Below, in pieces: positions 25,654 to 64,000 of a DNA stretch of 64,000 bases. The stretch is from the NCBI GenBank assembly GCA_043812655.1, contig JBDRLW010000003.1, positions 21,125 through 85,124 on the forward strand, read 5' to 3'. The position numbers and the translations under genes are program-made. How positions within the stretch are numbered: the stretch's first letter is position 1; each line of letters opens with the position of its first letter. The DNA comes from a bacterium (GTDB lineage: Bacteria; Margulisbacteria; WOR-1; O2-12-FULL-45-9; XYB2-FULL-48-7). The notes under the pieces are model-generated. The model was not told where the DNA came from. It worked only from the letters and a program-made list of their open reading frames with translations, and ran no database searches.

Positions 25654-26052
25654 TTAAGAACTGCGAGTCATGCCATCCTTGCGAACTCTAGATGTAAAAG
25701 CTTTGAGTTGGCGGAAAATGTTTTCCGCTTTACTTAAGTACAATTTATGGTCAGCATCAATAATGTATCCATCGTCCAATGCCGCGTCCAAACAAGCCAC
25801 CACTTCACCAACCGAAGTTAAAGCTGTATTGAGAAATCTGCTAAAATCAACATCCGAATATCTTTCCGATCCTTCGGCAATATTTAGTAGGATTGAGTCC
25901 ATGGCTCGCCATAATTGTGAAGTTAAACAATATTGTTCTTCTTTAGGGAATTTTTTCTTGCTTAATTGTTTTAATCCAACCCTAAATTCGCGAGCATCTT
26001 TGTATACCGGAAACTCTCTAAATCTAAATACGCTTATTGTTTTTTCGTTCAT
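25654..26052 (-). CDS. four-helix-bundle protein (23S rRNA intervening-sequence protein family, PF05635/TIGR02436-like)
   Basis: 'FPKEEQYCLTSQLWRAMDSILLNIAEGSERYS' matches the conserved family core (FPKEE...L.SQ.RRAa.Si..NIAEG). Confidence 0.7.
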   Translation of the reverse strand: MNEKTISVFRFREFPVYKDAREFRVGLKQLSKKKFPKEEQYCLTSQLWRAMDSILLNIAEGSERYSDVDFSRFLNTALTSVGEVVACLDAALDDGYIIDADHKLYLSKAENIFRQLKAFTSRVRKDGMTRSS

Positions 26053-26067
26053 AAGTTCATAAGTTTA

Positions 26068-26736
26068 TCAGTTTATAAGTTCTTCAGTCTTTCCGTTCTT
26101 CATGATAAAATCAATTACCCGACCAAACGAATCATCAATGAACCGTTGGTCACGGTAAGTTATTAGTTGCTTTAGCTCTGGCTGATAAACATCTTTTATG
26201 AGTTGGCAACGCTCAAGCAATATTGGCAATTTCCCCTTAAAAACATCTAAATTCGCGATAAGCTTCTCCCTATCTTCATCTATCACTACTGCCAGGTCAA
26301 AAATATCCCGGCTTTTAAACTGTTCCGCCCGATAAAATATTTTTTTGACTATTATCTCCGGCGGGGTTTCAATGTTGATTTGATAACGTCCAACCTTCAT
26401 CTTTCCAATTGGCTCCTTGGTCAAATAAGGAGCGGCAATAAAATCAATAAAAACATCACCCTTTAACTTTATTTTGAGATAATTAGATTGTTCTTCCGCT
26501 CCAGCATAATCCTTGTCGCTTTCCACATGATCATTTAAACGTGGCGATAAACACGTTAAATATTGTACGTCGGTCAAAAAAATGTCTATGTCCTTACTGT
26601 AGCGGTGATGATAATAGGACATCAACGCCGTCCCTCCGCCAAACGACCATTTATTGACCGGTATTTGTGCTGATTCCAGGTAAGCAATAGCTTTCAATAA
26701 AATTTTTTCCCACTTTTCAGTTCTATTATTTAGCAT
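26068..26736 (-). CDS. nucleotidyltransferase, AbiEii/AbiGii toxin family (type IV TA toxin-like)
   Basis: 'WSFGGGTALMSYYHHRYSKDIDIFL' matches the AbiEii GGTAL...R.S.DID NTase core. Confidence 0.6.
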   Translation of the reverse strand: MLNNRTEKWEKILLKAIAYLESAQIPVNKWSFGGGTALMSYYHHRYSKDIDIFLTDVQYLTCLSPRLNDHVESDKDYAGAEEQSNYLKIKLKGDVFIDFIAAPYLTKEPIGKMKVGRYQINIETPPEIIVKKIFYRAEQFKSRDIFDLAVVIDEDREKLIANLDVFKGKLPILLERCQLIKDVYQPELKQLITYRDQRFIDDSFGRVIDFIMKNGKTEELIN

Positions 26737-27010: not shown

Positions 27011-27050
27011 AGTTCCTTCGTTCTTTGGTTCTTTAGTCCTTTGGTCTGTT
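27011..27050. repeat. right inverted repeat of the cassette (reverse complement of the AAGAAC-rich repeat)
   Basis: Its reverse complement 'gaacagaccaaaggactaaagaaccaaagaacgaaggaac' matches 25608-25650. Confidence 0.55.
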
Positions 27051-28043: not shown

Positions 28044-28688
28044 TTAGCCTGCCTCCTTGATCTTGTTGCGGAAAAAAGCGGCAATAGTCTTTGGTGCAGC
28101 CGGCTGTTCGCTTAGGTAACGAAGCTTTTCATCGACAACAATATCACCAGTAAATGCCAACTGCTCCAGGAACATCCGCTCGCTAAAGACCTCTCCATAT
28201 TTCTTTTTGGCTATATCAGTTATTTGATCAAGCGCGAGAAAATTATTTTTTACCATGACATAAAGATCAAAATAATCACGGTAATTACCGCGTCGGCCCA
28301 AAGCATATGCCTTGGTCGCCGCGATATCCTTGATCGATAATAACGGTAAATTTCCTGTTGTTTTCACCAATGGAAAAAGCGGTCGCCAATAATAATTCAA
28401 GAGCGTAATTTTAATATTGCCATCTAGAACTATTGTCAACTCATCAGCCGTATCGACTAGAGTGGTAAGATGATATTGGCGCAGTCCGCCCAGAAGTTTT
28501 CTTTTAACGGCAAAGGTAATATCCTTATCACGAAAAAGGTCGAAATCGAGTGACTCACGATGTCCTATCTGCAAAGCTAAAGCCGTACCACCGGCTAGAT
28601 AATAATCATGGCCTAATACTTTATTGAGCCTGGAAAAAACTGTCTTTCTTTCCGGATCAAGTATTTTCCAAAATAATTTTTTATTCAT
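28044..28688 (-). CDS. nucleotidyltransferase, AbiEii/AbiGii toxin family (second copy)
   Basis: 'YLAGGTALALQIGHRESLDFDLF' is the AbiEii NTase core motif. Confidence 0.6.
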   Translation of the reverse strand: MNKKLFWKILDPERKTVFSRLNKVLGHDYYLAGGTALALQIGHRESLDFDLFRDKDITFAVKRKLLGGLRQYHLTTLVDTADELTIVLDGNIKITLLNYYWRPLFPLVKTTGNLPLLSIKDIAATKAYALGRRGNYRDYFDLYVMVKNNFLALDQITDIAKKKYGEVFSERMFLEQLAFTGDIVVDEKLRYLSEQPAAPKTIAAFFRNKIKEAG

Positions 28689-30041: not shown

Positions 30042-30461
30042 TTACCCCATCTGTCCCGCCTTCGGCGGGACATCTTCCCCTTGGTAAGGGGAAGAATATA
30101 AGGAATTATCAATCTTATCTCGAATACTAGCAATCACTTGTTCAAGATTATTAAAAACCTCTTCATTTGTAAAACGAATGAAATTGATTTCTAAACATTC
30201 TATCAATTTCTGTCGTGCTTTATCATAATTGCGTTGATTTCTACTAAGATGATAACCACCATCAATTTCAATTCCCAACCTGACTTCTGGTGAATAAAAA
30301 TCAATCACAAAACCCTTAATGCTATATTGTCTTCGGAACTTATGCCCATTAACTTTTCGTTTTCTTATTTGTTCCCATAATATTTTCTCGGCTTCCGTCA
30401 TATTCTTACGCAGTATTTGTCTTTTTTCTCGATCACGACTTCTATTATATATCTTTGTCAT
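30042..30461 (-). CDS. DUF559 endonuclease-domain protein (Vsr/PD-(D/E)xK-like)
   Basis: 'LRKNMTEAEKILWEQIR', 'FRRQYSIKGFVIDFY', 'LGIEIDGGYH' and 'YDKARQKLIECLEINFIRF' are the conserved DUF559 blocks. The C-terminal tail reads through a flanking inverted repeat. Confidence 0.65.
   Translation of the reverse strand: MTKIYNRSRDREKRQILRKNMTEAEKILWEQIRKRKVNGHKFRRQYSIKGFVIDFYSPEVRLGIEIDGGYHLSRNQRNYDKARQKLIECLEINFIRFTNEEVFNNLEQVIASIRDKIDNSLYSSPYQGEDVPPKAGQMG
30073..30093. repeat. inverted repeat flanking the DUF559 gene (left copy), containing palindrome CCCCTTGGTAAGGGG
   Basis: 'cttccccttggtaaggggaag' read directly. Its partner 'ctcccccttaccaagggggag' lies at 30497-30517. Confidence 0.65.
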
Positions 30462-33764: not shown

Positions 33765-34890
33765 GTCTCGACTCACTTCGTTCGCTCGACATTAAACTTG
33801 CGAAGTCATTAAACAAGTAATGGGCATCATGCGGTCCTGGTCCCGCCTCCGGATGATATTGGACAGAAAAGATCGGTAAGGTTTTATGTTTCATCCCTTC
33901 AACTGTCTTATCATTTAAATTAATGTGGGTCAGCTCGACCGTTCCTTTGGGAATGGAATCGATATCAACAGCAAACCCATGGTTTTGGGCAGTGATAGCC
34001 ACTTTTCTCGTCTGCAAATCCATAACCGGTTGGTTGCCGCCATGATGGCCAAACTTTAATTTATAGGTCTTGCCGCCTAAAGCTAGCCCTAACAATTGGT
34101 GTCCCAAACAGATCCCAAAGATCGGTTTCTTCCCGATTAGTTGTTTAATATTTTTGATCGCGTAAGTCACCGCCGCTGGATCAGCTGGCCCGTTAGACAG
34201 GAATATCCCGTCTGGATTCATGGCCATGACTTTTTCCGCCGGAAAATCGGCGGGGACAACAGTGACTCGACAACCCGCCGCAACAAGATTATTTAGAATA
34301 CTAAACTTGATCCCATAATCATACGCCACCACATTAAATTCAGGCTTTCTACATTCATTGGTCATTGGAAATTGGTCATTGGTCATTTTCCACTCATGCG
34401 GCTCTTTACAAGTAACGGTCTTAACCAGATCAACCCCTTCAACTCCCTGACAATTTTTGGCTCTCCTTATCAAATGCCTTTCATTTAAATCAACTGTCGA
34501 GATTATTCCTTTCAAAGAACCCTTTGTCCGCAGCCGCCGAGTTAACATCCGGGTATCGATCCCTTCGATCCCCACGATCCCATATTTTTTAAGATAGTCG
34601 CCAAGCCCGCTGGTCGAGCGGAAATTTGAAGCTATCCTTGAATTTTCCCTGACAATAAAACCTTCGCATTGGGGGATGGTCGACTCCAGGTCTTCTTCAT
34701 TAACACCGTAATTGCCGATCAAGGGGTAAGTCATCGTTACGATCTGGCCTTTGTAGGAAGGATCGGTCAAGATTTCTTGATAACCAGAAAGAGAGGTATT
34801 GAAAACGATCTCCCCGCTCTTCTCACCCTCGGAGCCAAAAGAGCGACCATGAAAAACCGTCCCATCTTCTAAAGCTAAAACTGCTTTCAT
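33757..34890 (-). CDS. carA: carbamoyl-phosphate synthase small subunit (glutamine amidotransferase)
   Basis: '[19 protein letters not shown]' is the canonical CarA start, chosen over the longer track ORF. The GATase triad region 'GICLGHQLL' is present. The C-terminal residues run into the hairpin repeat. Confidence 0.85.
33764..33789. repeat. GC-rich hairpin repeat family 'GTCTCGACTCACTTCGTTCGCTCGAC' at the carA/carB junction
   Basis: Read directly. Related copies occur at 38584-38608 and, in reverse complement, within 63797-63838. Confidence 0.55.
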
Positions 34891-38066: not shown

Positions 38067-38080
38067 ATATTTGGTAAATG

Positions 38081-38260
38081 CCGCGGAGAGGAATTGAACC
38101 TCCATGGGTTTAACCCCGCTAGCTCCTGAAGTCCCGCTTCATTAATATTTTATCATAATGACTTGCGGGATCCCGACGATTACATTATTATCATATCTTA
38201 ATGACCGTCGGGACTAGTGCGCCCGCCTTCGGCGGGTAAATCTGCCAGATAATAAACTTG
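38081..38260 (-). pseudogene. 5'-truncated tRNA-Leu-like pseudogene carrying two short hairpin insertions
   Basis: Minus strand reads TGGCAGA, then insert tttacccgccgaaggcggg, then CGCACTAG, then an 88-nt insert with the tcccgacg...cgtcgggatccc hairpin, then CTTCAGGAGCTAGCGGGGTTAAACCCATGGAGGTTCAATTCCTCTCCGCGGCA. Confidence 0.5.
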
Positions 38261-38270
38261 CTTCTTCAAA

Positions 38271-38354
38271 TGCCCAGGAGAGGAATTGAACCTCCATGGG
38301 TTTAACCCCGCTAGCTCCTGAAGCTAGTGCGTCTGCCAGTTCCGCCACCTGGGC
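38271..38354 (-). tRNA. tRNA-Leu (anticodon CAG)
   Basis: The reverse complement folds as a class II tRNA. Acceptor GCCCAGG/CCTGGGC, anticodon loop TTCAGGA, long variable arm, T-loop TTCAATT. Confidence 0.85.
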
Positions 38355-38424
38355 ATTTGAAGGTGGAAATATTCTCTCATAAATTGACTGCTGATTCAAG
38401 ATATTTTTCTGAAAAAAAAGGAGA

Positions 38425-38486
38425 TAGTTCCGCTTTACCCGCCACAGGTGGGTTTACCCGCCGCAGGCGGGCATAGCGGCATAAAA
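38425..38486. repeat. duplicated tRNA-Leu 5' end (GCCGCTATG) followed by hairpin element CCCGCC-N-GGCGGG-TAAA
   Basis: Minus-strand read: TGCCGCTATG, then cccgcctgcggcgggtaaa, then cccacctgtggcgggtaaagcgg. Confidence 0.45.
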
Positions 38487-38571
38487 TGCCGCTGGCCGGA
38501 GTTGAACCGGCACGGGGGTTAACCCCACTTGATTTTGAGTCAAGCGCGTCTGCCAATTCCACCACAGCGGC
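38487..38571 (-). tRNA. tRNA-Leu (anticodon CAA)
   Basis: The reverse complement is GCCGCTGTGGTGGAATTGGCAGACGCGCTTGACTCAAAATCAAGTGGGGTTAACCCCCGTGCCGGTTCAACTCCGGCCAGCGGCA. The anticodon loop CTCAAAA gives CAA. Confidence 0.85.
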
Positions 38572-38700
38572 ATTTCGACTCCGTCTCGACTCACTGCGTT
38601 CGCTCGACGTCGCTCAATGCCGAGAGAAGCCGAGACATTCCACTTTACCCGCCTGCCTACCGGCAGGCAAGCCGTAGGCGGGCACAGCGGCACGACAACT
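38572..38700. repeat. composite repeat upstream of tRNA-Leu(CAA): CTCGAC-family hairpin plus duplicated tRNA 5' end interrupted by palindromic hairpin CCCGCCTACGGCTTGCCTGCCGGTAGGCAGGCGGG-TAAA
   Basis: Minus-strand read: TGCCGCTGTG, then cccgcctacggcttgcctgccggtaggcaggcgggtaaa, then GTGGAAT, then gtctcg...cgagac, then the intact tRNA. The same palindrome in opposite orientation is at 44720-44760. Confidence 0.5.
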
Positions 38701-44706: not shown

Positions 44707-44709
44707 CGT

Positions 44710-44774
44710 GCCGCGGTGGCCCGCCTACGGCTTGCCTGCCGGTAGGCAGGCGGGTAAATGGAACTGGCTGGCAC
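44710..44774 (+). pseudogene. tRNA-Leu 5' fragment (GCCGCGGTGG...GAACTGGCTGGCAC) interrupted in the D-arm by palindromic hairpin element
   Basis: GCCGCGGTGG, then cccgcctacggcttgcctgccggtaggcaggcgggtaaatg, then GAACTGGCTGGCAC. The acceptor 5' strand is complementary to the ...CCGCGGCA end at 45013. Confidence 0.45.
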
Positions 44775-44803
44775 TTACATCCCGAAGTTGAATGCAATTT
44801 TTT

Positions 44804-44887
44804 GCCGAGGTGGTGGAACTGGCAGACACACCAGCTTGAGGGGCTGGCGCCGTTAAAAGCGTAGGAGTTCAAATCTCCTCCTCGGCA
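44804..44887 (+). tRNA. tRNA-Leu (anticodon GAG)
   Basis: GCCGAGGTGGTGGAACTGGCAGACACACCAGCTTGAGGGGCTGGCGCCGTTAAAAGCGTAGGAGTTCAAATCTCCTCCTCGGCA. Class II cloverleaf with anticodon loop TTGAGGG. Confidence 0.85.
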
Positions 44888-44913
44888 TAAAAATTGCTTT
44901 CAAATTCAGAGAT

Positions 44914-45013
44914 GGAGGTTCTCCCGACGGACATTATAATAGAATAATGATGAAATCGTCGGGATCCCGATTTCCGCCAAAGGCGGAACATCGGGAAAGT
45001 CCTCTCCGCGGCA
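44914..45013 (+). pseudogene. tRNA-Leu 3' fragment (T-arm plus acceptor, GGAGGTTC...CCTCTCCGCGGCA) with a hairpin element inserted in the T-loop
   Basis: GGAGGTTC, then tcccgacggacattataatagaataatgatgaaatcgtcgggatccc-gatttccgccaaaggcggaacatcggga, then aagtCCTCTCCGCGGCA. The same 3' end sequence as the 38081 fragment. Confidence 0.45.
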
Positions 45014-45016
45014 TTA

Positions 45017-45664
45017 TTAATTTGCCTTTTTTCTTAATCCCGAAACTGTTGTAAAACTATACCCCTTTTTCTTTAGATCTTTGATCATTATTGGCAGGGC
45101 CTCGACTATTTGCCGGCTATTATCATGCATCAACACTACCGAGCCATTCCGCACCAGGGAAGTAACCCTTTTGGCGATCGAAGCCGCCGTTCGCATCCCC
45201 TTTTTTGGCTGGTAGAAATCGTCAGCGTTCGCGTTCCATAACACGATCTCATAGCCCGCTTTTTCGATCAGCTTTCTTTTAGAATATGGTAATCGCCCGT
45301 GCGGCGGGCGGAAAAGAACAACCTTTTTATTAGTAGCCTTCATGATCAAAAGGGAAGTCTCTCTAATCTCTGCCAGCGTTTTCTTATCATCCATCTGGTC
45401 CAAGGACGTATGGCTGTAGGTGTGGTTCCCGATCTCGTGCCCGTCCGCGCTTGCCTGGCTGACAAACTGCGGATTATCCTTAACTTTCCAGCCGATCACA
45501 AAAAAGGTCACCGGGACATTTTCCTTTTTCAGTATAGGCAAGAGCTTATCGATGACGCCAGGCGTTGGCCCATCGTCAAAAGTTAAAGCAACCTGCTTTT
45601 TCGCGCTCGCGGAAAAAGCTAAACATAATGCCAAGATCAAGATAATGGATATTTTTCTTACCAT
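45017..45664 (-). CDS. secreted polysaccharide deacetylase (NodB homology domain)
   Basis: Signal peptide 'MVRKISIILILALCLAFSASA'. 'LTFDDGP' catalytic motif. 'HTYSH' and 'FRPPHG' are NodB motifs. Confidence 0.75.
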   Translation of the reverse strand: MVRKISIILILALCLAFSASAKKQVALTFDDGPTPGVIDKLLPILKKENVPVTFFVIGWKVKDNPQFVSQASADGHEIGNHTYSHTSLDQMDDKKTLAEIRETSLLIMKATNKKVVLFRPPHGRLPYSKRKLIEKAGYEIVLWNANADDFYQPKKGMRTAASIAKRVTSLVRNGSVVLMHDNSRQIVEALPIMIKDLKKKGYSFTTVSGLRKKAN

Positions 45665-45807
45665 ATAATAAAACCAGTTTTCATTATAGCACTATAATAA
45701 AATAAACATTGATCCCTCATTACTCATTACTCATCCCTCCCTTGCTTCTATAAAAAGTATTCGGTATAATCAAAACAATTGTTAAATCGATCGGTGGTAA
45801 ATTAAAT

Positions 45808-47283
45808 ATGGTTACTATGTGGACAAAAGAAACCTTAAAACAGCTTATTAAAGAAAAATTGAACGGCGATCTTTTTATTGTCGCTTCAAACCGCGAGCCG
45901 TATATCCATAAAAGCGGCCCTGAAGGGATCGAATGCATTAACCCGGCGAGCGGCTTGACCTTGGCGCTTGACCCGGTCTTGCGAGCCAGCGGCGGCGTTT
46001 GGGTCGCGCACGGCAGCGGCGATGCCGACCGCAAGGTCGTGGACGAAAAATGCCGCGTGCAGGTCCCTCCCAAAGACCCAAAATATGCCTTAAGAAGGGT
46101 CTGGCTAAATAAGGCCGAAGAAACCGGTTACTATTACGGTTTTTCCAATGAAACTCTTTGGCCGCTCTGCCATATTGTTTACACCAAGCCAAATTTCGAT
46201 GAGTCGGACTGGCTCCACTATAAAGCTGTCAACGAAAAATTCGCCAAAACTATTTTGGATGAGGTTGGCGACCGAAAAGCTTTTGTTTTTATCCAGGACT
46301 ATCACCTCACGCTGGTACCAAAGATGTTAAGGGATGCTAATCCAGAGATTAAATCCGCCCTTTTCTGGCATATCCCCTGGCCAAACCCGGAAGCCTTCCG
46401 CATCAATCCCTGGAAAGAAGAAATATTGTGGGGAATGCTGGGCGCCGACTTGCTTGGTTTTCATATCCACTATCATGTCGACAATTTTTTAAAGACGGTT
46501 GACCAGACCCTAGAGGTCAGGGTCGATAAGGTCGGGACATCTGTGGTTTCCGGCGGCCGGGAAACATTGGTCAAGCCTTTTCCCATCAGCGTTGACTATG
46601 CACAGATCCAAAAAGATGCCAACGCCCCCGAAACTAAACAATTGACCAGCAAACTTAAGAAAGAATATAACCTTGGCTCGCAATTTATCGGGATCGGCAC
46701 GGACCGGATCGATTACACCAAAGGGATCGTCGAGCGGTTTAACGCCGTTGATAAATTATTCGAAAAGTACCCGGAATACGTTGGTAAATTCACCTTTATC
46801 CAAGCGGGCGTCCTAAGCCGGATCCACATCCAAAAATATAAAGACCTCAATGATGACATTAACGCGACCGTTGAGCGGATCAACTGGAAATACAGCAGTG
46901 ACAGCTGGCAGCCGATCGTCATGATCAGGCGGCATTTCACCCAGAAAGAATTAATGGCTTTGTACCAGATGGCCGATGTTTGCCTCGTTTCTTCACTGCA
47001 TGACGGGATGAACCTGGTGGCCAAAGAATATGTCGCGGCGGCTGACGCCAGCAAAGGGATGCTGGTCCTGTCACAATTCACCGGGGCGGCAAGAGAATTG
47101 ACGGATGCTATCTTGATCAACCCTTACGCTCCAGATAGCTTTGCCGAAGCGATCAAGTCCGCGATCGAAATGCCGCAGGAAGAAAGGGAACGGCGGATGA
47201 ATAAAATGAAAGAAGACGTCGCCGAGAATAATATTTACAAGTGGGCCGGCAAGATCATTCAGTCCCTCCTCAGGCTCTCCTGA
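45808..47283 (+). CDS. otsA: alpha,alpha-trehalose-phosphate synthase (GT20)
   Basis: 'FIQDYHLTLVPKMLR' and 'LFWHIPWPNPEAFRINPWKEEIL' are canonical OtsA blocks. 'VNPYAPDSFAEAI' matches the C-terminal motif. Confidence 0.85.
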   Translation: MVTMWTKETLKQLIKEKLNGDLFIVASNREPYIHKSGPEGIECINPASGLTLALDPVLRASGGVWVAHGSGDADRKVVDEKCRVQVPPKDPKYALRRVWLNKAEETGYYYGFSNETLWPLCHIVYTKPNFDESDWLHYKAVNEKFAKTILDEVGDRKAFVFIQDYHLTLVPKMLRDANPEIKSALFWHIPWPNPEAFRINPWKEEILWGMLGADLLGFHIHYHVDNFLKTVDQTLEVRVDKVGTSVVSGGRETLVKPFPISVDYAQIQKDANAPETKQLTSKLKKEYNLGSQFIGIGTDRIDYTKGIVERFNAVDKLFEKYPEYVGKFTFIQAGVLSRIHIQKYKDLNDDINATVERINWKYSSDSWQPIVMIRRHFTQKELMALYQMADVCLVSSLHDGMNLVAKEYVAAADASKGMLVLSQFTGAARELTDAILINPYAPDSFAEAIKSAIEMPQEERERRMNKMKEDVAENNIYKWAGKIIQSLLRLS

Positions 47284-48292
47284 CTATAAATAACAGATAC
47301 CAGCTGCCGATAACAGTTAGGATGATCAATAATGAATTCCAAGAAAACCGCATAAATAATTTCTCTTTTGACTTATTAATGATCGCAACAATGACCAGGC
47401 AAAGGCAGATCACGCCGGCCAGCGCGGTTAAGATGTTCAGGCTGGAGACCGCGCTTAGTAATGGCGCCTGGCGGTAAAACGGGTCAATTACCGAGATCAG
47501 GGCGATGTTAAAAAGAACAGACCCTAAAAGGCTGCTGATAGCCATATCCGGCGCCCCCATCCGCATGGCTGAAGTGGAAACGGTCAACTCCGGCAAAGTC
47601 GTGATCAGCGACAAGATTATGCTGCCGACGAACGTAGCTCCCAATCCGGTCTGGATCGCCAAACTATTGCCCAGGGTTGAAAGCCAGATGCCAGCCACCA
47701 CCACTAGCGCGCCAAAAAAAACGAATTTAGCCAAAACTGAAGCAACTTTCTCTTTGGTGTAGATATTTTCGACCTCAAGTATTTTCCCCTTCTCAAAAAT
47801 AAATATTTGCCTTTGGCCGATCAAATAAATGATGATGACCGCCAGTGTAAATACGTGCCCATTGACTATTGAAGAAAAGAAGATCCCCAGGCAAACTAAG
47901 CCCAACAGTAAAATGGCAAAACCGGCCGATAGAACGTGGCCAAGGTCAAGCTTGCTAAAAACCGACTTGTTCTTGTAAAGGTAATCCATAAAAGCGACCA
48001 GCAGCAAGTTCATCAGGCAAGCGCCAAGAAGATTCCCCACCCCCAGGTCTGGCTTGCCGACAAAAGTCGCGGCGCTCAAGCTATTTGAAAGTTCGGGGAG
48101 AGAAGTGATCGTAGCGAGCAGAACGATCCCGATCCAGCTTCGGCTCAAATTTAATTTTTCGGCCAGGATATCGGCATACTTGGTCAGTAAACTGGCCGCG
48201 ACAAAGATGATCCCGGCACAAAGAAATAATTCTAAAAACAGGGGCATATAAGGATGATACTTAATATTAGCCTTTTTGTCCAACGTAAACAT
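47270..48292 (-). CDS. Ca2+/cation antiporter (CaCA family, YrbG-like) membrane protein
   Basis: About 10 TM helices. Two alpha-repeat motifs 'GNSLPELSNSL' and 'GSIILSLITTLPELTVS'. Confidence 0.6.
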   Translation of the reverse strand: MFTLDKKANIKYHPYMPLFLELFLCAGIIFVAASLLTKYADILAEKLNLSRSWIGIVLLATITSLPELSNSLSAATFVGKPDLGVGNLLGACLMNLLLVAFMDYLYKNKSVFSKLDLGHVLSAGFAILLLGLVCLGIFFSSIVNGHVFTLAVIIIYLIGQRQIFIFEKGKILEVENIYTKEKVASVLAKFVFFGALVVVAGIWLSTLGNSLAIQTGLGATFVGSIILSLITTLPELTVSTSAMRMGAPDMAISSLLGSVLFNIALISVIDPFYRQAPLLSAVSSLNILTALAGVICLCLVIVAIINKSKEKLFMRFSWNSLLIILTVIGSWYLLFIVRRA

Positions 48293-49364
48293 GTGCTATA
48301 CTAAAAAAGGAGGTGTTGATTTGTCTGATTTATACAATATATTAAGCAATCGCCTTTATTTGGTCGCGGGAATAACTTATCTATTTTGGATATTGTTTTG
48401 CTGGATCTTTGTCGGGTATTTTAACCAGTTTGTCGGCAAGCTGGTAAGGAAGACTGAATCCAGGATCGACGATGTCTTGTTGCGTGAGGCAAAGCTTCCG
48501 CTCTGGTTAACCCTGATCGTCCTCGGGTTCTTTGTTGTTTCCAAGACTGTGGGGCTCCCAAACCAGGTAGCGCTCCGGGTCGAGCGTATTACCGGGCTCA
48601 CGATCGTTTTTGTCCTTATTTATTTCATCGCCAGGCTGCTATTGAACATGGCCAAGTTGGCGGCGGAAAAAAATGCCGGGATAAGGAATATCATGCCCAC
48701 TTTTTCGCGGCTGGCAAATTTAGTCGTCTGGGGAACTGGCCTTCTGATGCTGATGGATATTTTTGGGATCTCCGTAACGCCGGTCTTGGCTTCTTTGGGC
48801 ATCGCGGGTTTGGCTGTTGGTTTGGCCCTCCAAGATACGCTCAGTAATTTTTTTGCCGGTATTTATATTTCCGTCAGCCAGCCAGTGAGGCTCGGTGATT
48901 ATATTCAGCTGGAAAATGGCCTGAACGGCTACATAACGAATATTGGCTGGCGCGAAACCAGGATCAAGACCTTGCCCAATAATATGGTCATCGTCCCTAA
49001 TTCAAAATTATCCCAGTCGATCGTCACTAATTATTATCTGCCTCAGGCCGAAATGGCCTGTTTGGTGCAAGTCGGCGTTAGTTATGACAGTGATCTGGCC
49101 AAAGTGGAAAAAGTTACGGTTGAAGTCGGCCGTGAAGTTTTACAGAAAGTCTCCGGCGGAGTAAAGTCGTTCGAGCCTTTTATCCGCTACCATACATTCG
49201 CTGATTTCAGCATTAATTTTACGGTGATCTTGCGGGTCCTTGAATTTACAGACAAGTATTTAGTGACCCACGAATTCATCAAGGCCTTGCATCAGCGATA
49301 TAAACAGGAAGGCATCCAGATACCTTTCCCGATCAGGGATATAAACATCAAAAAAAGCGGATAA
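48276..49364 (+). CDS. mechanosensitive ion channel family protein (MscS)
   Basis: N-terminal TM helices followed by the MscS beta-domain 'PVRLGDYIQLENGLNGYITNIGWRETRIKTLPNNMVIVPNSKL'. Confidence 0.7.
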   Translation: MSNVNMCYTKKGGVDLSDLYNILSNRLYLVAGITYLFWILFCWIFVGYFNQFVGKLVRKTESRIDDVLLREAKLPLWLTLIVLGFFVVSKTVGLPNQVALRVERITGLTIVFVLIYFIARLLLNMAKLAAEKNAGIRNIMPTFSRLANLVVWGTGLLMLMDIFGISVTPVLASLGIAGLAVGLALQDTLSNFFAGIYISVSQPVRLGDYIQLENGLNGYITNIGWRETRIKTLPNNMVIVPNSKLSQSIVTNYYLPQAEMACLVQVGVSYDSDLAKVEKVTVEVGREVLQKVSGGVKSFEPFIRYHTFADFSINFTVILRVLEFTDKYLVTHEFIKALHQRYKQEGIQIPFPIRDINIKKSG

Positions 49365-49368
49365 AAGC

Positions 49369-50745
49369 TCAAGAAGATTCAGTTTTTGCCAAATACTTTT
49401 TTGGGATCTCCCCGGCCAGTGCCAGCGCCACTTTGGTCAGTAAAGGTCCGATAAGTTCATAGATGATCACCGATGACAGGACGATGGTGATGATCACCGC
49501 TCCGATCTCCGGAAGTTTGGCCTCCACTGACATTGACACTCCGATCGCTACCCCAGCTTGCGGGATCAAGCTGATACCTAAGTATTTTTGGACAGGGGCC
49601 GGCTCTTCAGTTAACCTGGCGCTCCAAAACGCGCCAATAAATTTACCAATGACCCGGGAAATAATATAGACAACGCCGACCAAGCCGATCTGGTTCAAGA
49701 GGCCAAGGTGTAACATCGCTCCGGAGATCACAAAAAAAGCGACGTAAAAAGGCGGACCGGTTAATTTTAGGCCATCCAGCACTTTCCGCCCTTTGGTCGA
49801 GATATTAACAATCGTGGCGCCAACCGCCATTGTCGTCAAAAGCGGAGAAAGATTAAAAGTAGTGGCCGCGCCAACGCTAAACAGGACCCCTCCCAAGATG
49901 ACCATTAGTTGCTCATTATCGTTTTTAGTCGACTGCTCCCAAAGGTTAAGAGCGTAACCGATCAATATCCCAAAGGCCAACGATCCAATGATCACCCAGA
50001 ACGGTTCAATGAAAAAAGTGATAGTGCTAAGCAGGTCCAGAGGATTTGCCCTGGCGGCAACGATCATTTTAGTTATAGAAAAGAATATATGGAAAAGCAG
50101 CAAGCAAAAGATATTGTTTAAGGCCACGACCGCGAGTAAGACATCCGTTAACCTTCCCCGGCTGCGATATTCCCTGACGACCATCAGGGTTGCCGCCGGC
50201 GCGGTGGCGGTGGCGATCGCCCCGATCAAAAGCGCAATATGCAAAGGCTGGCCTAGCATGAACATTGCCCCTCCTACTATTAAAAAGGCGCCTAAAACTT
50301 CGGCGAGCGCGATGTAAATAACTTTAGGCCCGACAGCAATAAAGTGTTTAAGCTCAAATTCCGCGCCGATCGCTAAAATTATCAGGCCAAGCGTAAATTC
50401 GCTGATCACTGTCACATTGCTGATCGTTTCGCTGGTCATTAAACCCAGGACTGAAGGGCCGATCAAAATGCCGGCGACCAGGTAGCCGGTCACTTTCGGT
50501 ATTTTAATATTTTGGGCAAGCTCTCCCATGATCAGGCCAAAGAGCAAAGTCAGCGCGACCGCCATGATGCTGTTCATCGGACGGAAAAAACGAGTGGCCA
50601 GAAAACCCAGGACAAGGATAAAGCCGATGATAATAATAAAATCGCCGGTTTGCGGCAGACGCCGGATGGTCTTTAAATAATTGCGCAGCCGTTTTAAGCG
50701 GTCGATCATGCCGTCAATTATAAACACAATTAACGGCCAGGGCAA
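49369..50745 (-). CDS. cation:proton antiporter (CPA family Na+/H+ or K+/H+ exchanger)
   Basis: 458 aa with about 12 TM. Sodium/hydrogen exchanger family-like composition. C-terminus lacks a TrkA domain. Confidence 0.65.
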   Translation of the reverse strand: MPWPLIVFIIDGMIDRLKRLRNYLKTIRRLPQTGDFIIIIGFILVLGFLATRFFRPMNSIMAVALTLLFGLIMGELAQNIKIPKVTGYLVAGILIGPSVLGLMTSETISNVTVISEFTLGLIILAIGAEFELKHFIAVGPKVIYIALAEVLGAFLIVGGAMFMLGQPLHIALLIGAIATATAPAATLMVVREYRSRGRLTDVLLAVVALNNIFCLLLFHIFFSITKMIVAARANPLDLLSTITFFIEPFWVIIGSLAFGILIGYALNLWEQSTKNDNEQLMVILGGVLFSVGAATTFNLSPLLTTMAVGATIVNISTKGRKVLDGLKLTGPPFYVAFFVISGAMLHLGLLNQIGLVGVVYIISRVIGKFIGAFWSARLTEEPAPVQKYLGISLIPQAGVAIGVSMSVEAKLPEIGAVIITIVLSSVIIYELIGPLLTKVALALAGEIPKKYLAKTESS

Positions 50746-50776
50746 ATGTTTTTAATTTCTGTTATAATAACTGGCA

Positions 50777-51496
50777 ATGCGCTACCTATTATTGCTTGAT
50801 TACGATGGCACCTTGGCCCCGATAAAAAAACACCCAAAACTCGCCCGTCTTTCTCCGCCCAGAAAAACATTTTTGCGCCAGCTGGCTAAACATCCAAAAA
50901 TAAAGATCGCGGTGATCTCAGGCCGAAAGTTGTCAGACCTAAAAAAAATGATCGGCCTCCCCAAGATCATCTATGTCGGCAACCATGGGTTTGAGATCGA
51001 AATTAATGGGAAACATAAAACCCACCCTGCCGCCAGAAAGATCATCCCGACTCTCAAGCGGATCAAGGCGATCTTAGCCAATAAGCTCAAAGTTAAAGGG
51101 GCCTGGGTTGAAGATAAAGACCTGACCCTGACCATTCATTACCGCCAAGCAGCCAAGAAGAGGTTAAAAGAATTTTATCAGCTATTTGATCAATTAACTA
51201 AACCCTGGCAAGGAAAAATAAAGATTACCAAAGGCAAAAAGGTCTTCGAGATCCGCTCACCCTTTGACTGGGATAAGGGAAAAGCGGTAGAATGGCTGAT
51301 CGCTAAATTAAAAATGGAAAATTACCTGCCGATCTATATTGGCGATGATAAAACGGATGAGGATGCCTTCATCGTTTTAAAAGGCAGGGGCAAGACGATT
51401 CACGTTGGCAACGGAAAGACCCTAGCTGAAACGCGGGTTAAAAATATTAGCGGCGTTTACGGTTATTTAAGAGGACTTTATAATGATGCGAGCTAA
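50777..51496 (+). CDS. otsB: trehalose-6-phosphate phosphatase (HAD-IIB)
   Basis: 'LLLDYDGTLAPI' HAD motif I with DxD. 'YIGDDKTDEDAF' motif IV. Confidence 0.75.
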   Translation: MRYLLLLDYDGTLAPIKKHPKLARLSPPRKTFLRQLAKHPKIKIAVISGRKLSDLKKMIGLPKIIYVGNHGFEIEINGKHKTHPAARKIIPTLKRIKAILANKLKVKGAWVEDKDLTLTIHYRQAAKKRLKEFYQLFDQLTKPWQGKIKITKGKKVFEIRSPFDWDKGKAVEWLIAKLKMENYLPIYIGDDKTDEDAFIVLKGRGKTIHVGNGKTLAETRVKNISGVYGYLRGLYNDAS

Positions 51497-52178
51497 GGCT
51501 CCTTTTACTTTCTATACCTCATCACAGCTAGTTGAGATCACTGGCCGAAAAGCCGCGACCCTGAAAGAATTTCTGGGAACCATCAAAGAGATCGAAGAGC
51601 CTTCGATCTTCTACCATGTCCACCATGCCTTCCGGGAGCACCAGTTCGCGCCCGGCCTTTATACCAACGACTTCGCGCATTGGGTCGCCGATGAATTAAA
51701 TGAAAAAGCCCTGGCCGAAAAACTGGCCAACATTAACCTCAAGGATTACTTGGAAATAAACTCCCTGCGGGCAAAGATCGTTGAAATAATCACCAACCAT
51801 TTAAAGACCAATCCCGATGACAACAGCAACCTTGTAGCCAAGCATAAGTTTTATTTCTGTAAAAATGTTGGGGTTGTCATGAAGACCAAATGCGCCGCCT
51901 GGGACCTGGAAGAGTTTTGTGAGATGCTGCGCCGGGTCGGCCTCCGCTCCCTTTTCTTCCATTTTTTTGAGGCCCGCCTAAGGCTGGGGCATAAGACCAA
52001 TGACTTTTCCGATTGGATCAAATTTAATTTTAATAACGACAAGCTAGCGCGGCAGATCGAAGCTTTGGACCCCTATTTATACACGATGGACCAGCTCCGG
52101 GACCAGATCATCAGTTTGATCCAAGGAAAAAAAGAGGATCTGGTCAGCAAAATAATAAAATGGCTAAAAATAGGATAG
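51483..52178 (+). CDS. hypothetical protein, conserved-looking, embedded in the trehalose locus
   Basis: 231 aa, no recognisable motif. Overlaps both neighbours, consistent with translational coupling between otsB and the treT-like gene. Confidence 0.4.
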   Translation: MMRAKAPFTFYTSSQLVEITGRKAATLKEFLGTIKEIEEPSIFYHVHHAFREHQFAPGLYTNDFAHWVADELNEKALAEKLANINLKDYLEINSLRAKIVEIITNHLKTNPDDNSNLVAKHKFYFCKNVGVVMKTKCAAWDLEEFCEMLRRVGLRSLFFHFFEARLRLGHKTNDFSDWIKFNFNNDKLARQIEALDPYLYTMDQLRDQIISLIQGKKEDLVSKIIKWLKIG

Positions 52179-53389
52179 AAGAATATTCAAAGATAATCCG
52201 GCCGCAAAATTTTGATGAGATCATGCTTTTGGCCGAAAAAGTCAAGGGCCGGCGCATTAAGATGGTCAACGCGACCGCGGTCGGCGGAGGAGTGGCGGAA
52301 ATATTGACCCGCGTCGTCCCGCTTTTTAACGATCTTGGGATCAAGACAAAATGGGAAGTCATTAAAGGGAGCGGTGAATTCTTTGGAGTAACTAAAGCTT
52401 TTCATAACGCCCTCCATGGGAGTAAAGCTGATATTACCGAACAAATGTTGAATATTTTCAACGAAACCACGAAAGCCAATATTGCCGAAATGAATTTTGA
52501 AGAAGATGTTATCATCATTCATGACCCCCAGCCCGCTGGTCTGATTGAAGCCAAAGAAAGATCAAAAGCCAAATGGGTCTGGCGTTGTCATATCGATACT
52601 TCCCACCCGCAAGCTGATGTCTGGGGTTTTCTCAAGAATTACGTCGGGAAATATGACGCTTCTATCTTTTCGACGCCTTGGTTCGCTAAAGAACTGCCGA
52701 TACCGCAATATTTTATTTATCCGGCGATCGACCCTCTCGCCGAAAAAAACCGCGATTTGCCGGCCCACGAAGTGAACGCGATCATGCAAAAATACAAGCT
52801 CGACCGGTCCCGCCCGATCATTACCCAGGTCTCAAGATTCGATTATTTAAAAGACCCTCTGGGAGTGATCGAAACATATAAACTAGTAAAAAAACATCTT
52901 AATTGCCAGCTGGTGCTGGCTGGCGGCGGAGCCAGCGATGATCCCGAGGGCGGCCAGGTCTTAAATGCGGTCCAAGAAGCGGCCAAAGGGGATCCTGACA
53001 TCCATATTTTATTGCTCCCGCCGTTCGCTGACCTGGAAATTAACGCCCTGCAACGGGCTTCGACCGTGATCTTGCAAAAATCGCTGCGGGAAGGCTTTGG
53101 CTTAACCGTCACCGAAGCTTTATGGAAGGCCAAACCGGTAGTAGCTTCAGCCGTTGGAGGGATAACTCTTCAGGTTATCCATAATTTTACCGGAATGCTG
53201 GTCCATTCAATTGAAGGCGCGGCCTATCAGATCCGATATTTGATCAATAACCCTCAAGTTGCCAAAAAGTTGGGAGAATATGGCAGGGAACATGTCAGGG
53301 AAAAATTCCTGATAACCAGGAAGATCCGGAATTATTTGCTCCTGCTTATTGCCTTAGAAAACCCCGGGAAAGATGTTATCCAGTTGTAA
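52160..53389 (+). CDS. GT4 glycosyltransferase, trehalose glycosyltransferring synthase (TreT)-like
   Basis: 'VNATAVGGGVAEIL' near the N-terminus resembles the TreT 'STxxGGGVAEIL' motif. C-terminal GT-B EX7E region 'EGFGLTVTEALWKAKPVVAS'. Confidence 0.55.
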   Translation: MAKNRIEEYSKIIRPQNFDEIMLLAEKVKGRRIKMVNATAVGGGVAEILTRVVPLFNDLGIKTKWEVIKGSGEFFGVTKAFHNALHGSKADITEQMLNIFNETTKANIAEMNFEEDVIIIHDPQPAGLIEAKERSKAKWVWRCHIDTSHPQADVWGFLKNYVGKYDASIFSTPWFAKELPIPQYFIYPAIDPLAEKNRDLPAHEVNAIMQKYKLDRSRPIITQVSRFDYLKDPLGVIETYKLVKKHLNCQLVLAGGGASDDPEGGQVLNAVQEAAKGDPDIHILLLPPFADLEINALQRASTVILQKSLREGFGLTVTEALWKAKPVVASAVGGITLQVIHNFTGMLVHSIEGAAYQIRYLINNPQVAKKLGEYGREHVREKFLITRKIRNYLLLLIALENPGKDVIQL

Positions 53390-53442
53390 TGCCATATGGG
53401 GTTGACGGGTGCAAGTTTTTTGTTTATGATACCGATAAATAA

Positions 53443-63188: not shown

Positions 63189-63307
63189 GTTATAAGTGTA
63201 GGCATTAAAACTGATAAAAGCAAGGGTTTACAGACAAATCTTGAGTTGTTTAATGATGATCAATGTTGTCGCTGCCAATCTTTTAGTGTAAAATGATGAC
63301 TTATCAT

Positions 63308-63380
63308 GCGGGAGTAGCTCAGCTGGTAGAGCTTCTGCTTCCCAAGCAGACGGTCGCGGGTTCGAACCCCGTCTCCCGCT
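63308..63380 (+). tRNA. tRNA-Gly (anticodon CCC)
   Basis: GCGGGAGTAGCTCAGCTGGTAGAGCTTCTGCTTCCCAAGCAGACGGTCGCGGGTTCGAACCCCGTCTCCCGCT. Anticodon loop TTCCCAA. Confidence 0.85.
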
Positions 63381-63388
63381 TTTTTATT

Positions 63389-63459
63389 GGCGGCATGGCC
63401 GAGTGGTTAGGCAGCGGTCTGCAAAACCGTTTACTCCAGTTCAAATCTGGATGCCGCCT
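63389..63459 (+). tRNA. tRNA-Cys (anticodon GCA)
   Basis: GGCGGCATGGCCGAGTGGTTAGGCAGCGGTCTGCAAAACCGTTTACTCCAGTTCAAATCTGGATGCCGCCT. Anticodon loop CTGCAAA. Confidence 0.85.
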
Positions 63460-63482
63460 TGTGTTATAATTATTGTATTGAT

Positions 63483-63649
63483 GCGCGCTTAGTCCCGACG
63501 ATTCGACTTGCGTCGAATGTCGGGATCCCGATTTCCGCTGTAAGCGGAACATCGGGACTCAGCTGGTTAGAGTACTTGTCCCGATGGTCATTAGAATAGA
63601 TAGTAATGGAATCATCGGGATCCCGAGGCTGAAGCTACCATTATTGCGC
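63483..63649 (+). pseudogene. duplicated tRNA-Val 5' fragments (acceptor plus D-arm) interrupted by two 'TCCCGACG...CGTCGGGATCCC' hairpin elements
   Basis: GCGCGCTTAG, then insert 1, then TCAGCTGGTTAGAGTACTTG, then insert 2 (63579-63645), then the intact tRNA-Val. Confidence 0.45.
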
Positions 63650-63723
63650 GCGCGCTTAGCTCAGCTGGTTAGAGTACTTGCTTGACAGGCAAGGGGTCAC
63701 AGGTTCGAAACCTGTAGCGCGCA
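63650..63723 (+). tRNA. tRNA-Val (anticodon GAC)
   Basis: GCGCGCTTAGCTCAGCTGGTTAGAGTACTTGCTTGACAGGCAAGGGGTCACAGGTTCGAAACCTGTAGCGCGCA. Anticodon loop TTGACAG. Confidence 0.85.
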
Positions 63724-63745
63724 ATAATGGATTAGTTTACTCGGG

Positions 63746-63851
63746 ACTTGACAGGTGCCTTGACTTAGCTCGGCACAGGCAAGGGGTCACAGGTTCGCCT
63801 GCCCCGAGCGAGGAACGAAGTGACGAGTCGAGGGGAAACCTGTAGCGCGCA
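63746..63851 (+). pseudogene. tRNA-Val 3' fragment copy (anticodon loop to acceptor) with insertions in the anticodon loop and T-loop
   Basis: CTTGACAGG, then tgccttgacttagctcggca, then CAGGCAAGGGGTCACAGGTTCG, then cctgccccgagcgaggaacgaagtgacgagtcgagggg, then AAACCTGTAGCGCGCA. The T-loop insert is the reverse complement of the CTCGAC-family repeat. Confidence 0.45.
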
Positions 63852-64000
63852 TTTTTATTACCCCGCTCGCTGGAAGGCGTAAAACTCTCCACCATTAAAA
63901 CAACCCCTATCTGTAAAATCTCTTGGTGGGAAAAGTCGGTCATTACTGCAACGACAAGAAATTATCCAGGTCCCCGGTTTTAATTCCAATAAAGCTTTTC

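Follow-up and report, generated by a model that had tools for sequence, protein, structure and literature searches.

How does a bacterial tRNA gene come to lie among broken pieces of itself? The question is raised by the tRNA-Val(GAC) gene near the end of a 64-kb stretch of DNA (hereafter the window). Its source organism is a member of Candidatus Margulisiibacteriota (Saganbacteria / WOR-1), represented by a metagenome-assembled genome (MAG); the closest FlhA relatives after the source record itself are 87-89% identical, and those with a named source come from Margulisbacteria, Saganbacteria or WOR-1. The window holds six tRNA genes according to ARAGORN and Rfam, and four of the six show the mosaic pattern. 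The original prediction, made from the sequence alone, took the tRNA-Val gene to be flanked by duplicated 5’ and 3’ fragments of itself, each interrupted by hairpin elements. All of the sequence features that it listed are present. We are highly confident that the mosaic is genuine and recurrent, and we think it fairly probable that the locus arose when small mobile elements invaded an essential tRNA gene at the level of DNA and brought along a tRNA to replace it; in the mechanism of this invasion we have moderate confidence.

Five fragments, each a 100% copy of part of the gene, ring the intact tRNA-Val (Table 1). Joined in order, the five outer pieces restore the intact sequence over 74 of 74 nucleotides (nt) and fold as a cloverleaf. 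Because the pieces sum to exactly one tRNA, they are not separate duplicated 5’ and 3’ copies: they make up one complete second tRNA-Val gene, a single resident gene split by nested insertions. It is cut by four inserts of 19-168 nt, at tRNA positions 10/11, 30/31, 39/40 and 56-57/58, and the intact copy is nested in the second of these. No tRNA base was lost at any of the hairpin inserts. The second 5’ fragment had been recognized in the original prediction, which dropped its first C. The outer gene starts 23 nt past tRNA-Cys, in the native slot of the last gene of a Gly-Cys-Val array, and a T-run (TTTTTATT) closes the array after outer piece 5. The whole mosaic probably belongs to the transcription unit of the promoter-like site upstream of the array. 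The inner tRNA-Val is presumed to be the functional copy.

Table 1. Features of the tRNA-Val locus and of the other tRNA loci in the window.
Feature	Position	Strand	Remarks
Promoter-like site TTGTCG-17-TAAAAT	63266-63294	+	upstream of the Gly/Cys/Val array; consensus match only
tRNA-Gly(CCC) and tRNA-Cys(GCA)	63308-63459	+	63308-63380 and 63389-63459; clean, without inserts or fragments
Outer tRNA-Val piece 1	63483-63492	+	GCGCGCTTAG; tRNA positions 1-10
Insert 1, double hairpin	63493-63557	+	at 10/11; DNA fold -28.2 kcal/mol, z -8.8
Insert 1, units a and b	63493-63525, 63526-63557	+	each TCCCGA to TCGGGA
Outer tRNA-Val piece 2	63558-63578	+	CTCAGCTGGTTAGAGTACTTG, 21 nt; tRNA positions 11-30
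Insert 2, left unit (hairpin c)	63579-63620	+	at 30/31; z -3.5
Insert 2, right unit (hairpin d)	63621-63746	+	TCCCGAG...CTCGGGA; at 30/31; z -6.7
Inner intact tRNA-Val(GAC)	63650-63723	+	ARAGORN; Rfam 65.8 bits
Outer tRNA-Val piece 3	63747-63755	+	CTTGACAGG; tRNA positions 31-39
Insert 3	63756-63779	+	19 nt TGCCTTGACTTAGCTCGGC and repeated ACAGG; at 39/40; non-hairpin, z +0.3
Outer tRNA-Val piece 4	63780-63797	+	tRNA positions 40-57; exact match 63775-63797 = ACAGGCAAGGGGTCACAGGTTCG
Insert 4	63798-63835	+	38 nt in T-loop; 56/57 or 57/58 (1-nt ambiguity); non-hairpin, z 0.06
Outer tRNA-Val piece 5	63836-63851	+	tRNA positions 58-73; exact match 63835-63851 = GAAACCTGTAGCGCGCA
tRNA-Leu(GAG) locus	44709-45010	+	nested likewise; inner intact tRNA 44803-44888, 9-bp complementary flanks
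tRNA-Leu(CAG) and tRNA-Leu(CAA) locus	38078-38700	-	38270-38355 and 38486-38572; broken Leu partner copies

The first two inserts are hairpins of one kind, whose family we define by a TCCCGA start, a TCGGGA end, a terminal stem of at least 7 bp with a covarying seventh pair, a variable interior and a usual occurrence in abutting pairs. Insert 1 is such a pair. Insert 2 joins hairpin c, a member of an AT-rich subtype (TCCCGAYGGWCATTA..TAATGRAATCRTCGGGA) conserved in Saganbacteria MAGs, to hairpin d, the interior of which is the intact tRNA-Val with short complementary flanks (CCATTATT / AATAATGG); the original prediction had overlooked both c and d. The hairpin inserts of the Val locus have no target-site duplication. 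Inserts 3 and 4 are not hairpins (z about 0), so the predicted interruption by hairpin families holds for the first two inserts and fails for the last two. The insert in the anticodon loop, previously given as 20 nt, has 19 nt and is edged by a 5-nt direct repeat (ACAGG) that resembles a target-site duplication; other copies of it were looked for and none was found. Insert 4 is a CTCGAC-family sequence in reverse orientation. Its predicted relationship to a repeat at carA/carB stands, though not as a plain reverse complement: ordered blocks of 8, 9 and 5 nt match positions 33765-33790 with two 3-nt indels, and blocks of the reverse complement also match 38583-38608. Blastn-short reported no match between insert 4 and the carA/carB repeat.

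The CTCGAC family is not confined to tRNA genes. The repeat at 33765-33790 (TCTCGACTCACTTCGTTCGCTCGAC) is located at the 3’ end of the carA frame, just before the likely start of carB (MPKRTDIKK), and a 96% identical copy (38573-38637) lies between the 5’ fragment of tRNA-Leu(CAA) and the intact gene.

Within the window, units a to h belong to this hairpin family. Three tRNA loci account for all eight TCCCGA-type units of at least 32 nt in the 64 kb, the units invariably adjoining in twos, and the double hairpins fold with z from -5 to -8.8. The junction 12-mer, TCGGGATCCCGA, occurs four times in the window, against 0.09 expected. The prediction that three tRNA loci, including those of tRNA-Leu, share the mosaic was borne out, and the same element families recur in them. 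At the tRNA-Leu(GAG) locus the outer 5’ piece starts 2 nt past the murF stop codon and consists of GCCGCGGTGG, a 39-nt CCCGCC element and TGGAACTGGCTGGCAC; the outer 3’ piece is GGAGGTTC, a double hairpin (44922-44996) and AAGTCCTCTCCGCGGCA. Of the acceptor strands, the two outer ones form a complementary pair that is distinct from the pair of the inner gene. The broken copies at the tRNA-Leu(CAG)/tRNA-Leu(CAA) locus hold a double hairpin (38132-38213) and elements of the CCCGCC type and the CTCGAC family.

The 39-nt CCCGCC element (CCCGCCTACGGCTTGCCTGCCGGTAGGCAGGCGGGTAAA) is 100% identical at 44720-44758 (+) and 38644-38682 (-), in each case directly behind nucleotide 9 or 10 within the 5’ piece of a tRNA-Leu. 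The palindrome at the core of the element, CCTGCCTGCCGGCAGGCAGG, is also found in Omnitrophota, Saganbacteria and Sedimentisphaerales (loci L020, L023, L046, L086 and L100; loci fetched from other genomes are given by L numbers).

Which of the nested copies came first can be read from relatives of the window. Three genomes with 87% identical FlhA (L001, L002, L003) have a clean tRNA-Leu(GAG) directly after murF, where the window has the outer 5’ piece, and L001 also has a clean Leu(CAA)-Leu(CAG) pair. Comparison with these orthologous loci thus shows that the state of the window is derived: the outer copies are the original residents, and the inner copies and inserts later arrivals.

The arrangement is not peculiar to this genome. 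Scanning one genome per species with the pattern TCCCGAYG-N15-45-CRTCGGGATCCCGA, we found many matches in MAGs of Margulisiibacteriota/WOR-1/Saganbacteria and of Candidatus Omnitrophota, and scattered matches in other taxa. A double-hairpin match lay within 400 nt of an ARAGORN tRNA in 18 of 27 cases in Margulisiibacteriota and in 10 of 15 in Omnitrophota (28 of 42 for both phyla together), and most of the remaining matches of the two phyla lie within a T-arm fragment or at the 3’ end of a transfer-messenger RNA (tmRNA) gene (L084). Among the 83 matches in other taxa a single one was linked to a tRNA, a Sedimentisphaerales tRNA-Pro that looks genuine; the rest are chance matches. The elements are thus non-random in their distribution, with a link to tRNA genes that holds for the window as well as for over ten independent MAGs. 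In about 30 of 38 hairpin clusters, tRNA sequence lies on either side of the insert and runs on without a gap in tRNA numbering. Insertions in these approximately 38 clusters are concentrated in the T-loop (55/56/57; about 15), the D-arm or D-loop (about 10) and the anticodon arm (about 5). Displaced 5’ pieces usually lie upstream of the intact gene, and 3’ pieces downstream.

The hairpins themselves are conserved and covarying. The AT-rich subtype was aligned from 33 copies in at least ten MAGs, including hairpin c and two other units of the window; the terminal stem is paired in 100% of the copies, and pair 7:46 is U:A in 21, C:G in 11 and unpaired in none, figures somewhat inflated by the stem filter with which the copies were gathered. 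Double hairpins usually combine one ACG-type and one ATG-type unit, which disfavours a single long hairpin. The sequences to their left vary (GTTC, TTAG, TCAG, CTTG, TTTT and GAAG).

Several loci show variants of the layout. At L084 (7126-7660), an intact ssrA gene, which encodes tmRNA, is followed after a 13-nt spacer by a T-arm copy split at 56/57 by a double hairpin. In L009, L027, L123 and L125 (tRNA-Pro) and in L088 (tRNA-Ala), the 17-nt anticodon arm of the interrupted copies is exchanged for a 17-nt TCCCG-N7-CGGGA mini-hairpin (e.g., TCCCGATCCGATCGGGA), and the interrupted copy of L027 has its T-arm swapped for TCCGCCAAAGGCGGA, arm for arm rather than by insertion. Two simple explanations of the layouts were tried and rejected. 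A long target-site duplication does not account for the succession of tRNA, spacer and fragment, since the spacer is not repeated after the second copy (L028); and a crossover exactly at 56/57 does not account for the T-loop fragment of L030, since the two halves of this fragment form a consistent T-stem of their own, unlike that of the intact tRNA.

Recurrence also bears on the quality of the assembly. The source is a MAG and the locus is rich in short exact repeats, so that a chimeric mosaic could have arisen from short-read assembly of tRNA arrays; a collapse of repeated arrays had been raised in the original prediction too. However, the edges of the inserts coincide with conserved hairpin ends, the pieces sum exactly to one tRNA, and the same design recurs, with other tRNAs and other sequences, in over ten independent assemblies, one of them a curated complete WOR-1 genome. 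We consider an artefact scarcely credible.

Two further loci, from independent MAGs, repeat the architecture of the window, a complete tRNA enclosed in a hairpin inside another tRNA. In the Saganbacteria locus L091, an outer tRNA-Met is split at 26/27 by a hairpin followed by a second one that contains the intact tRNA-Met (TCCCGATACCGTCGAAT - intact tRNA-Met - TTCGACTAACACATCGGGA), and again at 56/57 by another double hairpin. In the Omnitrophota locus L108, an outer tRNA-Gly(TCC) is split at 12/13 by a double hairpin and at 35/36 by a unit that contains the intact gene (TCCCGACCATAAT - intact tRNA-Gly - TAAATCTTGTCGGGA), followed by a hairpin. Without its inserts the outer gene of L091 is a valid cloverleaf (ARAGORN), and so is that of L108 by sequence reading. 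Together with tRNA-Val of the window, these are 3 of 54 intact tRNAs in the fetched loci that are enclosed by matched hairpin ends. The outer and inner genes of L091 and L108 differ, by sequence reading, in compensated changes of the acceptor and T stems; this would make the inner copies diverged imported alleles, and not fresh local duplicates.

In two Omnitrophota tRNA-Glu loci, L034 and L054, two alleles, with acceptor stems GACCCTG/CAGGGTC and GACCCCA/TGGGGTC, exchange roles: each is whole in one genome and broken in the other. Replacement of one cassette by another would be expected to give this pattern.

The main competing explanation is a purely local history, in which repeated tandem duplication of the tRNA (e.g., by slippage between hairpin-rich repeats) was followed by deletions and by hairpins resembling miniature inverted-repeat transposable elements (MITEs), with neither cargo nor nuclease at the locus. 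The 100% identity of the inner and outer tRNA-Val is what a recent local duplication would give, the scans of the window found no nuclease or transposase, and overlapping or tandem partial copies do occur in the arrays of L027, L034, L054 and L088, as does a duplicated 3’ unit in L123. Independent truncations, however, would not be expected to produce exactly complementary breaks (30|31 in the window, 26|27 in L091, 35|36 in L108), nor to leave the intact copy enclosed by matched TCCCGA.../...TCGGGA ends in all three cases. The compensated stem changes of L091 and L108 also speak against it, and the preference of the hairpins for tRNA sequence would be left unaccounted for. A local history therefore seems unlikely to us as the explanation of the Val locus.

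The same three outer genes (window Val, L091 Met and L108 Gly), being perfect cloverleaves once the inserts are taken out, could also suggest that the inserts are removed at the RNA level, either with the hairpins as bacterial tRNA introns of a new type or with split tRNA halves joined through the stem of hairpin d once the inner tRNA has been excised, the outer gene also yielding a tRNA. The inserts are precise and located at loops or helix junctions, and the hairpin d stem would hold the outer halves together. The original prediction had proposed checks of bulge-helix-bulge and self-cleaving structures, and neither kind was found. The hairpins adjoin the tRNA directly, there is no exon-intron pairing and there are no 3-nt bulges around a 4-bp helix; the 3’ exon starts (CTCAGC, CTTGAC, AAGTCC and CTAGTG) cannot pair with the 5’ end of the intron. 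An Rfam scan of 63250-64000 at E<=1 returned only the three tRNAs, and no intron or ribozyme. Further, inserts 3 and 4 have no structure, every interrupted copy has an intact one inside or beside it, and elsewhere the majority of the interrupted copies are without essential parts or have another sequence in place of the anticodon arm; most of them would yield no tRNA if freed of their inserts. Bacteria are not known to possess a tRNA splicing endonuclease, and neither such an enzyme (EndA) nor an RNA ligase was seen among the open reading frames (ORFs) scanned in the window. We regard removal from the RNA as very improbable.

Remnants of integrative elements are another conceivable source of the pieces. 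Elements that use a tyrosine recombinase integrate into tRNA loops and restore the gene with a tRNA end of their own; repeated integration and decay would leave fragments, and the hairpins would then be later invaders or degenerate attachment (att) sites. An order reminiscent of attL/attR (intact tRNA, spacer, 5’ strand of the T-stem, displaced positions 57-76) is indeed found in L028, L047, L077 and L112 and at the tmRNA of L084, and an 8.5-kb block missing in relatives adjoins tRNA-Leu(GAG). On the other hand, the ORFs scanned in the window include no integrase, displacement affects 5’ and 3’ pieces equally often, and the putative element between the repeats measures just 10-170 nt. The hairpin lies exactly at the junction of the non-functional site, and the breaks fall at stem or junction positions (10/11, 26/27, 30/31) that are not classical att cores. 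This makes an integrase origin improbable in our view.

What could break tRNA genes in this way is suggested by related loci. An ORF of 81-88 amino acids (aa) lies directly upstream of the intact tRNA in L023, L027, L034, L054, L088 and L108, and in three tandem copies in L015; its stop codon falls inside the tRNA in L027, L034 and L054. The product is a stand-alone GIY-YIG domain (PF01541, E 1e-15 to 7e-19), with a weaker match to PF10544 (T5orf172), whose Pfam name derives from nucleases of the tRNA region of phage T5. Among solved structures, it comes closest to the UPF0213 proteins 1zg2 and 1ywl and to SLX1, a structure-specific nuclease. All these nuclease-bearing loci (L015 to L108) had been fetched solely for their hairpin pattern. 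An independent test was made with five homologues picked by protein similarity alone, two from Margulisiibacteriota and three from the Candidate Phyla Radiation (CPR; Adlerbacteria, Yanofskybacteria and Paceibacterota). Four of the five are accompanied on the same strand by an intact tRNA (Pro-CGG, Pro-TGG, Tyr or Asn), the start of which is -16 to +21 nt from the stop codon of the ORF, and all four have 5’ pieces of the tRNA upstream of the ORF and 3’ pieces downstream of the tRNA. The order in L123, for example, is positions 1-16, then TCCCGA..., the ORF and the intact tRNA, then a spacer and positions 17-76, the last unit being present twice. The nuclease gene is thus also within the inserted segment in L123, L125, L126 and L128. 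These comparisons show a linkage of nuclease and tRNA in the relatives.

In the fifth homologue (L130, Paceibacterota, 1420-1800), the ORF sits in the loop of an inverted repeat of about 35 bp that resembles a bidirectional terminator, which suggests that the GIY-YIG family inserts into hairpin loops in general and not into tRNA genes alone. Within one tRNA type, double hairpins are inserted at the very positions where cassettes have their junctions (Pro 16/17, Glu 35/36). Locus L009 resembles one of the L125 type with the ORF precisely missing; loci without a nuclease may therefore derive from loci that bear one.

The locus L015 (1-1400, Margulisiibacteriota MAG019) repeats in tandem, at least three times, a unit that comprises a tRNA-Asp-like sequence interrupted by a hairpin, a GIY-YIG ORF and a promoter-like spacer; next to the array are an ORF for an HNH endonuclease and two tRNA-Ser genes.

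Put together, these observations are consistent with the following course of events. The outer tRNA-Val would have been split first at 30/31, by a pair of TCCCGA...TCGGGA units of which one, unit d, carried a complete tRNA-Val as cargo, so that the cell was never without tRNA-Val. The outer copy, now redundant, would then have gained three more inserts: the double hairpin at 10/11, the 19-nt element at 39/40 and the CTCGAC-family element in the T-loop. Only the inner tRNA would be functional at present, the outer copy being presumably dead. In related genomes the replacement tRNA is fused to the gene of an 81-88 aa nuclease of the UPF0213/Slx1-type GIY-YIG kind and bracketed by pieces of the resident tRNA. 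Such a nuclease may break the tRNA gene at cloverleaf loops or helix junctions, and repair of the break may copy the cassette in through the flanking tRNA homology, which would amount to intronless homing. Homing by break repair would yield precise insertion, contiguous target flanks and no duplication, unlike cut-and-paste transposition. The hairpin units would be non-autonomous riders on the same breaks, and the window locus a nuclease-less derivative. The T-arm and D-arm, as the most conserved parts of tRNAs, would offer the best homology for spread between tRNA species, in agreement with the ranking of the insertion hot spots.

Several observations weigh against this course of events. A tblastn search of the window with a threshold as loose as E<=50 gave noise but no GIY-YIG gene or remnant, and no transposase or integrase, nor a RAYT/TnpA, was found among its ORFs scanned; it is therefore by analogy with relatives that the window is connected to the nuclease. 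As the inner tRNA-Val is the same as the outer one, an import cannot be demonstrated at the Val locus and would have required a conspecific source or gene conversion. A metagenome scan for the empty Val site (3’ end of tRNA-Cys, gap, 5’ start of tRNA-Val) gave one chance match (L119), the contigs of the nearest homologues of the upstream sigma factor (L120-L122) are non-syntenic and have no tRNA array, and the FlhA-neighbour genomes L001-L003 are likewise non-syntenic at the Val locus. Some double hairpins lie in plain intergenic DNA (L066, L086, L099 and L109). The interrupted copies of L052 and L053 break the rule of nesting, so tandem duplication also contributes. Finally, the proposed mechanism does not explain how a catalytic domain of 81-88 aa that has no DNA-binding part would locate tRNA genes, or why the replacement copy would be spared from cutting.

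Beyond the Val locus, we suggest only tentatively, leaning slightly to doubt, that these loci belong to an undescribed, self-rescuing class of mobile elements in Margulisbacteria, Omnitrophota, CPR and probably other groups: cassettes that would home into essential tRNA genes and carry a complete replacement tRNA, some with a minimal stand-alone GIY-YIG (Slx1-like) nuclease fused to its 5’ end and others, such as that of the window, reduced to a hairpin with nothing but the tRNA as cargo, the nuclease recognising DNA structure (cloverleaf loops, helix junctions and hairpin loops) and not sequence.

One of the closest known systems is the homing of freestanding GIY-YIG endonucleases in phage tRNA clusters, such as SegB of T4 (PMC2330249). 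As in the phage, the nuclease gene of the relatives stands among tRNA genes and is intron-free. The phage gene spreads by cutting an allele that lacks the nuclease, into which it is then copied along with adjoining tRNA sequence, as may be the case here, and the contiguous, unduplicated target flanks of such homing are present at 30|31 in the window and likewise in L091, L108 and L123. Unlike the phage system, the present loci are on chromosomes of uncultured bacteria, the protein is a catalytic domain of 81-88 aa with no DNA-binding domain, and the targeted tRNA gene itself houses the cassette, which supplies a complete tRNA as a replacement; the copy of the window has no nuclease.

Short mobile palindromes offer a second comparison. 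Hairpin MITEs derived from IS200/IS605 insert without duplication, immediately 3’ of one fixed tetra- or pentanucleotide. REPINs, which are mobilized with RAYT transposases, are paired short palindromes (PMC3116915). Our hairpins resemble both in being short palindromes with conserved ends, often paired, free of target duplications and of a structure kept by covariation. In many relatives, as in REPINs, the second hairpin is approximately the reverse complement of the first; the paired units of the window, in contrast, are of different subtypes, and a C/T difference at the seventh position of the stem makes two local hairpins more likely than one long one. Unlike REPINs, the hairpins are strongly linked to tRNA genes and not generally extragenic, and the cargo is within one hairpin and not between two. 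Unlike IS200/IS605 MITEs, they follow no single target tetranucleotide, the left flanks being of six kinds.

Integrative elements that target tRNA and tmRNA genes restore the invaded gene with a copy of its end (class I, II and III sublocations). The present elements likewise target the anticodon loop, the T-loop and tmRNA, restore the gene with sequence of their own and leave fragments beside the intact gene. They differ in size (30-250 nt against kilobases), in the absence of an integrase, in carrying a complete tRNA, in displacing 5’ pieces too and in their hairpin ends. Archaeal tRNA genes with multiple introns, and split and permuted ones, are known from Thermoproteales and Nanoarchaeum, and the archaeal tRNA-splicing endonuclease acts at bulge-helix-bulge motifs (PMC7714728). 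These share with our loci several non-canonical interruption sites and short structured inserts that have apparently spread between tRNA genes; unlike them, our loci are bacterial, have no bulge-helix-bulge and no sign of splicing, always have an intact copy at hand, and their interrupted copies are usually truncated. Very small dispersed or palindromic repeats can insert into each other and into genes of structural RNAs; Rickettsia palindromic elements are an example, and Margulisbacteria are the sister group of Cyanobacteria, whose small dispersed repeats are another relevant case. The latter are mentioned in PMC3116915. With such repeats our elements have in common several families of 20-45 nt nested in each other and common to related lineages, as well as the insertion at tmRNA (L084); unlike ours, those have not been reported to be tRNA-confined, tRNA-carrying or linked to a nuclease. 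Overall, the Val locus shares mechanisms with phage GIY-YIG homing, with REPINs and IS200/IS605 and with integrative elements, and fails at least one defining feature of each. In the literature searched, the coverage of which was incomplete, no description was found of tRNA-carrying hairpin units or of UPF0213-type GIY-YIG genes fused to replacement tRNAs.

Other parts of the window showed features worth recording. The block missing in L001 and L002, where the flagellar genes follow directly after the tRNA, spans about 8.5 kb (44889-53442) between tRNA-Leu(GAG) and the flagellar operon. Its genes are those of a polysaccharide deacetylase, trehalose-6-phosphate synthase and phosphatase, TreT, a DUF5752 protein, MscS and two cation exchangers, and the block resembles an osmoprotection island beside a tRNA, without an integrase. 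The neighbours of a DUF559 ORF (Vsr-like endonuclease fold; 30042-30461, minus strand) are carB and a gene for an FAD oxidoreductase. Small palindromes (CCCCTTGGTAAGGGG and TCCCGCCTTCGGCGGGA) encode the C-terminal tail of the DUF559 product, with a similar palindrome at the 5’ side, and its 17-nt TCCCGCC hairpin resembles inserts in the tRNA-Asp and tRNA-Tyr fragments of L015 and L126. Two AbiEii-type toxin genes (26068-26736 and 28044-28688, minus strand) are found inside a polysaccharide export cluster (Wzz, Poly_export), edged by degenerate arrays with an 8-nt period (GAACTTAAA / GTTCATAA / GTTCTTTG; 25531-25662, 26047-26088 and 27012-27045). The GC skew is -0.13 to -0.25 in positions 1-34000, where all genes are on the minus strand, and about zero from about 36 kb on, where gene orientation is mixed.

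The genome annotation of candidate phyla would have to be adjusted: their tRNA loci abound in pieces of pseudo-tRNA that can mislead tRNA counts, the calling of integration sites and the curation of assemblies. If our reading is correct, selfish DNA can colonise a short, essential, intron-less gene by supplying a spare copy of it, a strategy that would differ from those of self-splicing introns, inteins and end-restoring integrases. The widespread UPF0213 GIY-YIG proteins, which have no assigned function and are “hypothetical” in PDB entries, would have a concrete job, and a nuclease of 80 aa that finds tRNA genes would be of interest for research on homing and structure-specific nucleases. 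Imported replacement tRNAs would also imply that tRNA alleles are exchanged horizontally between lineages.

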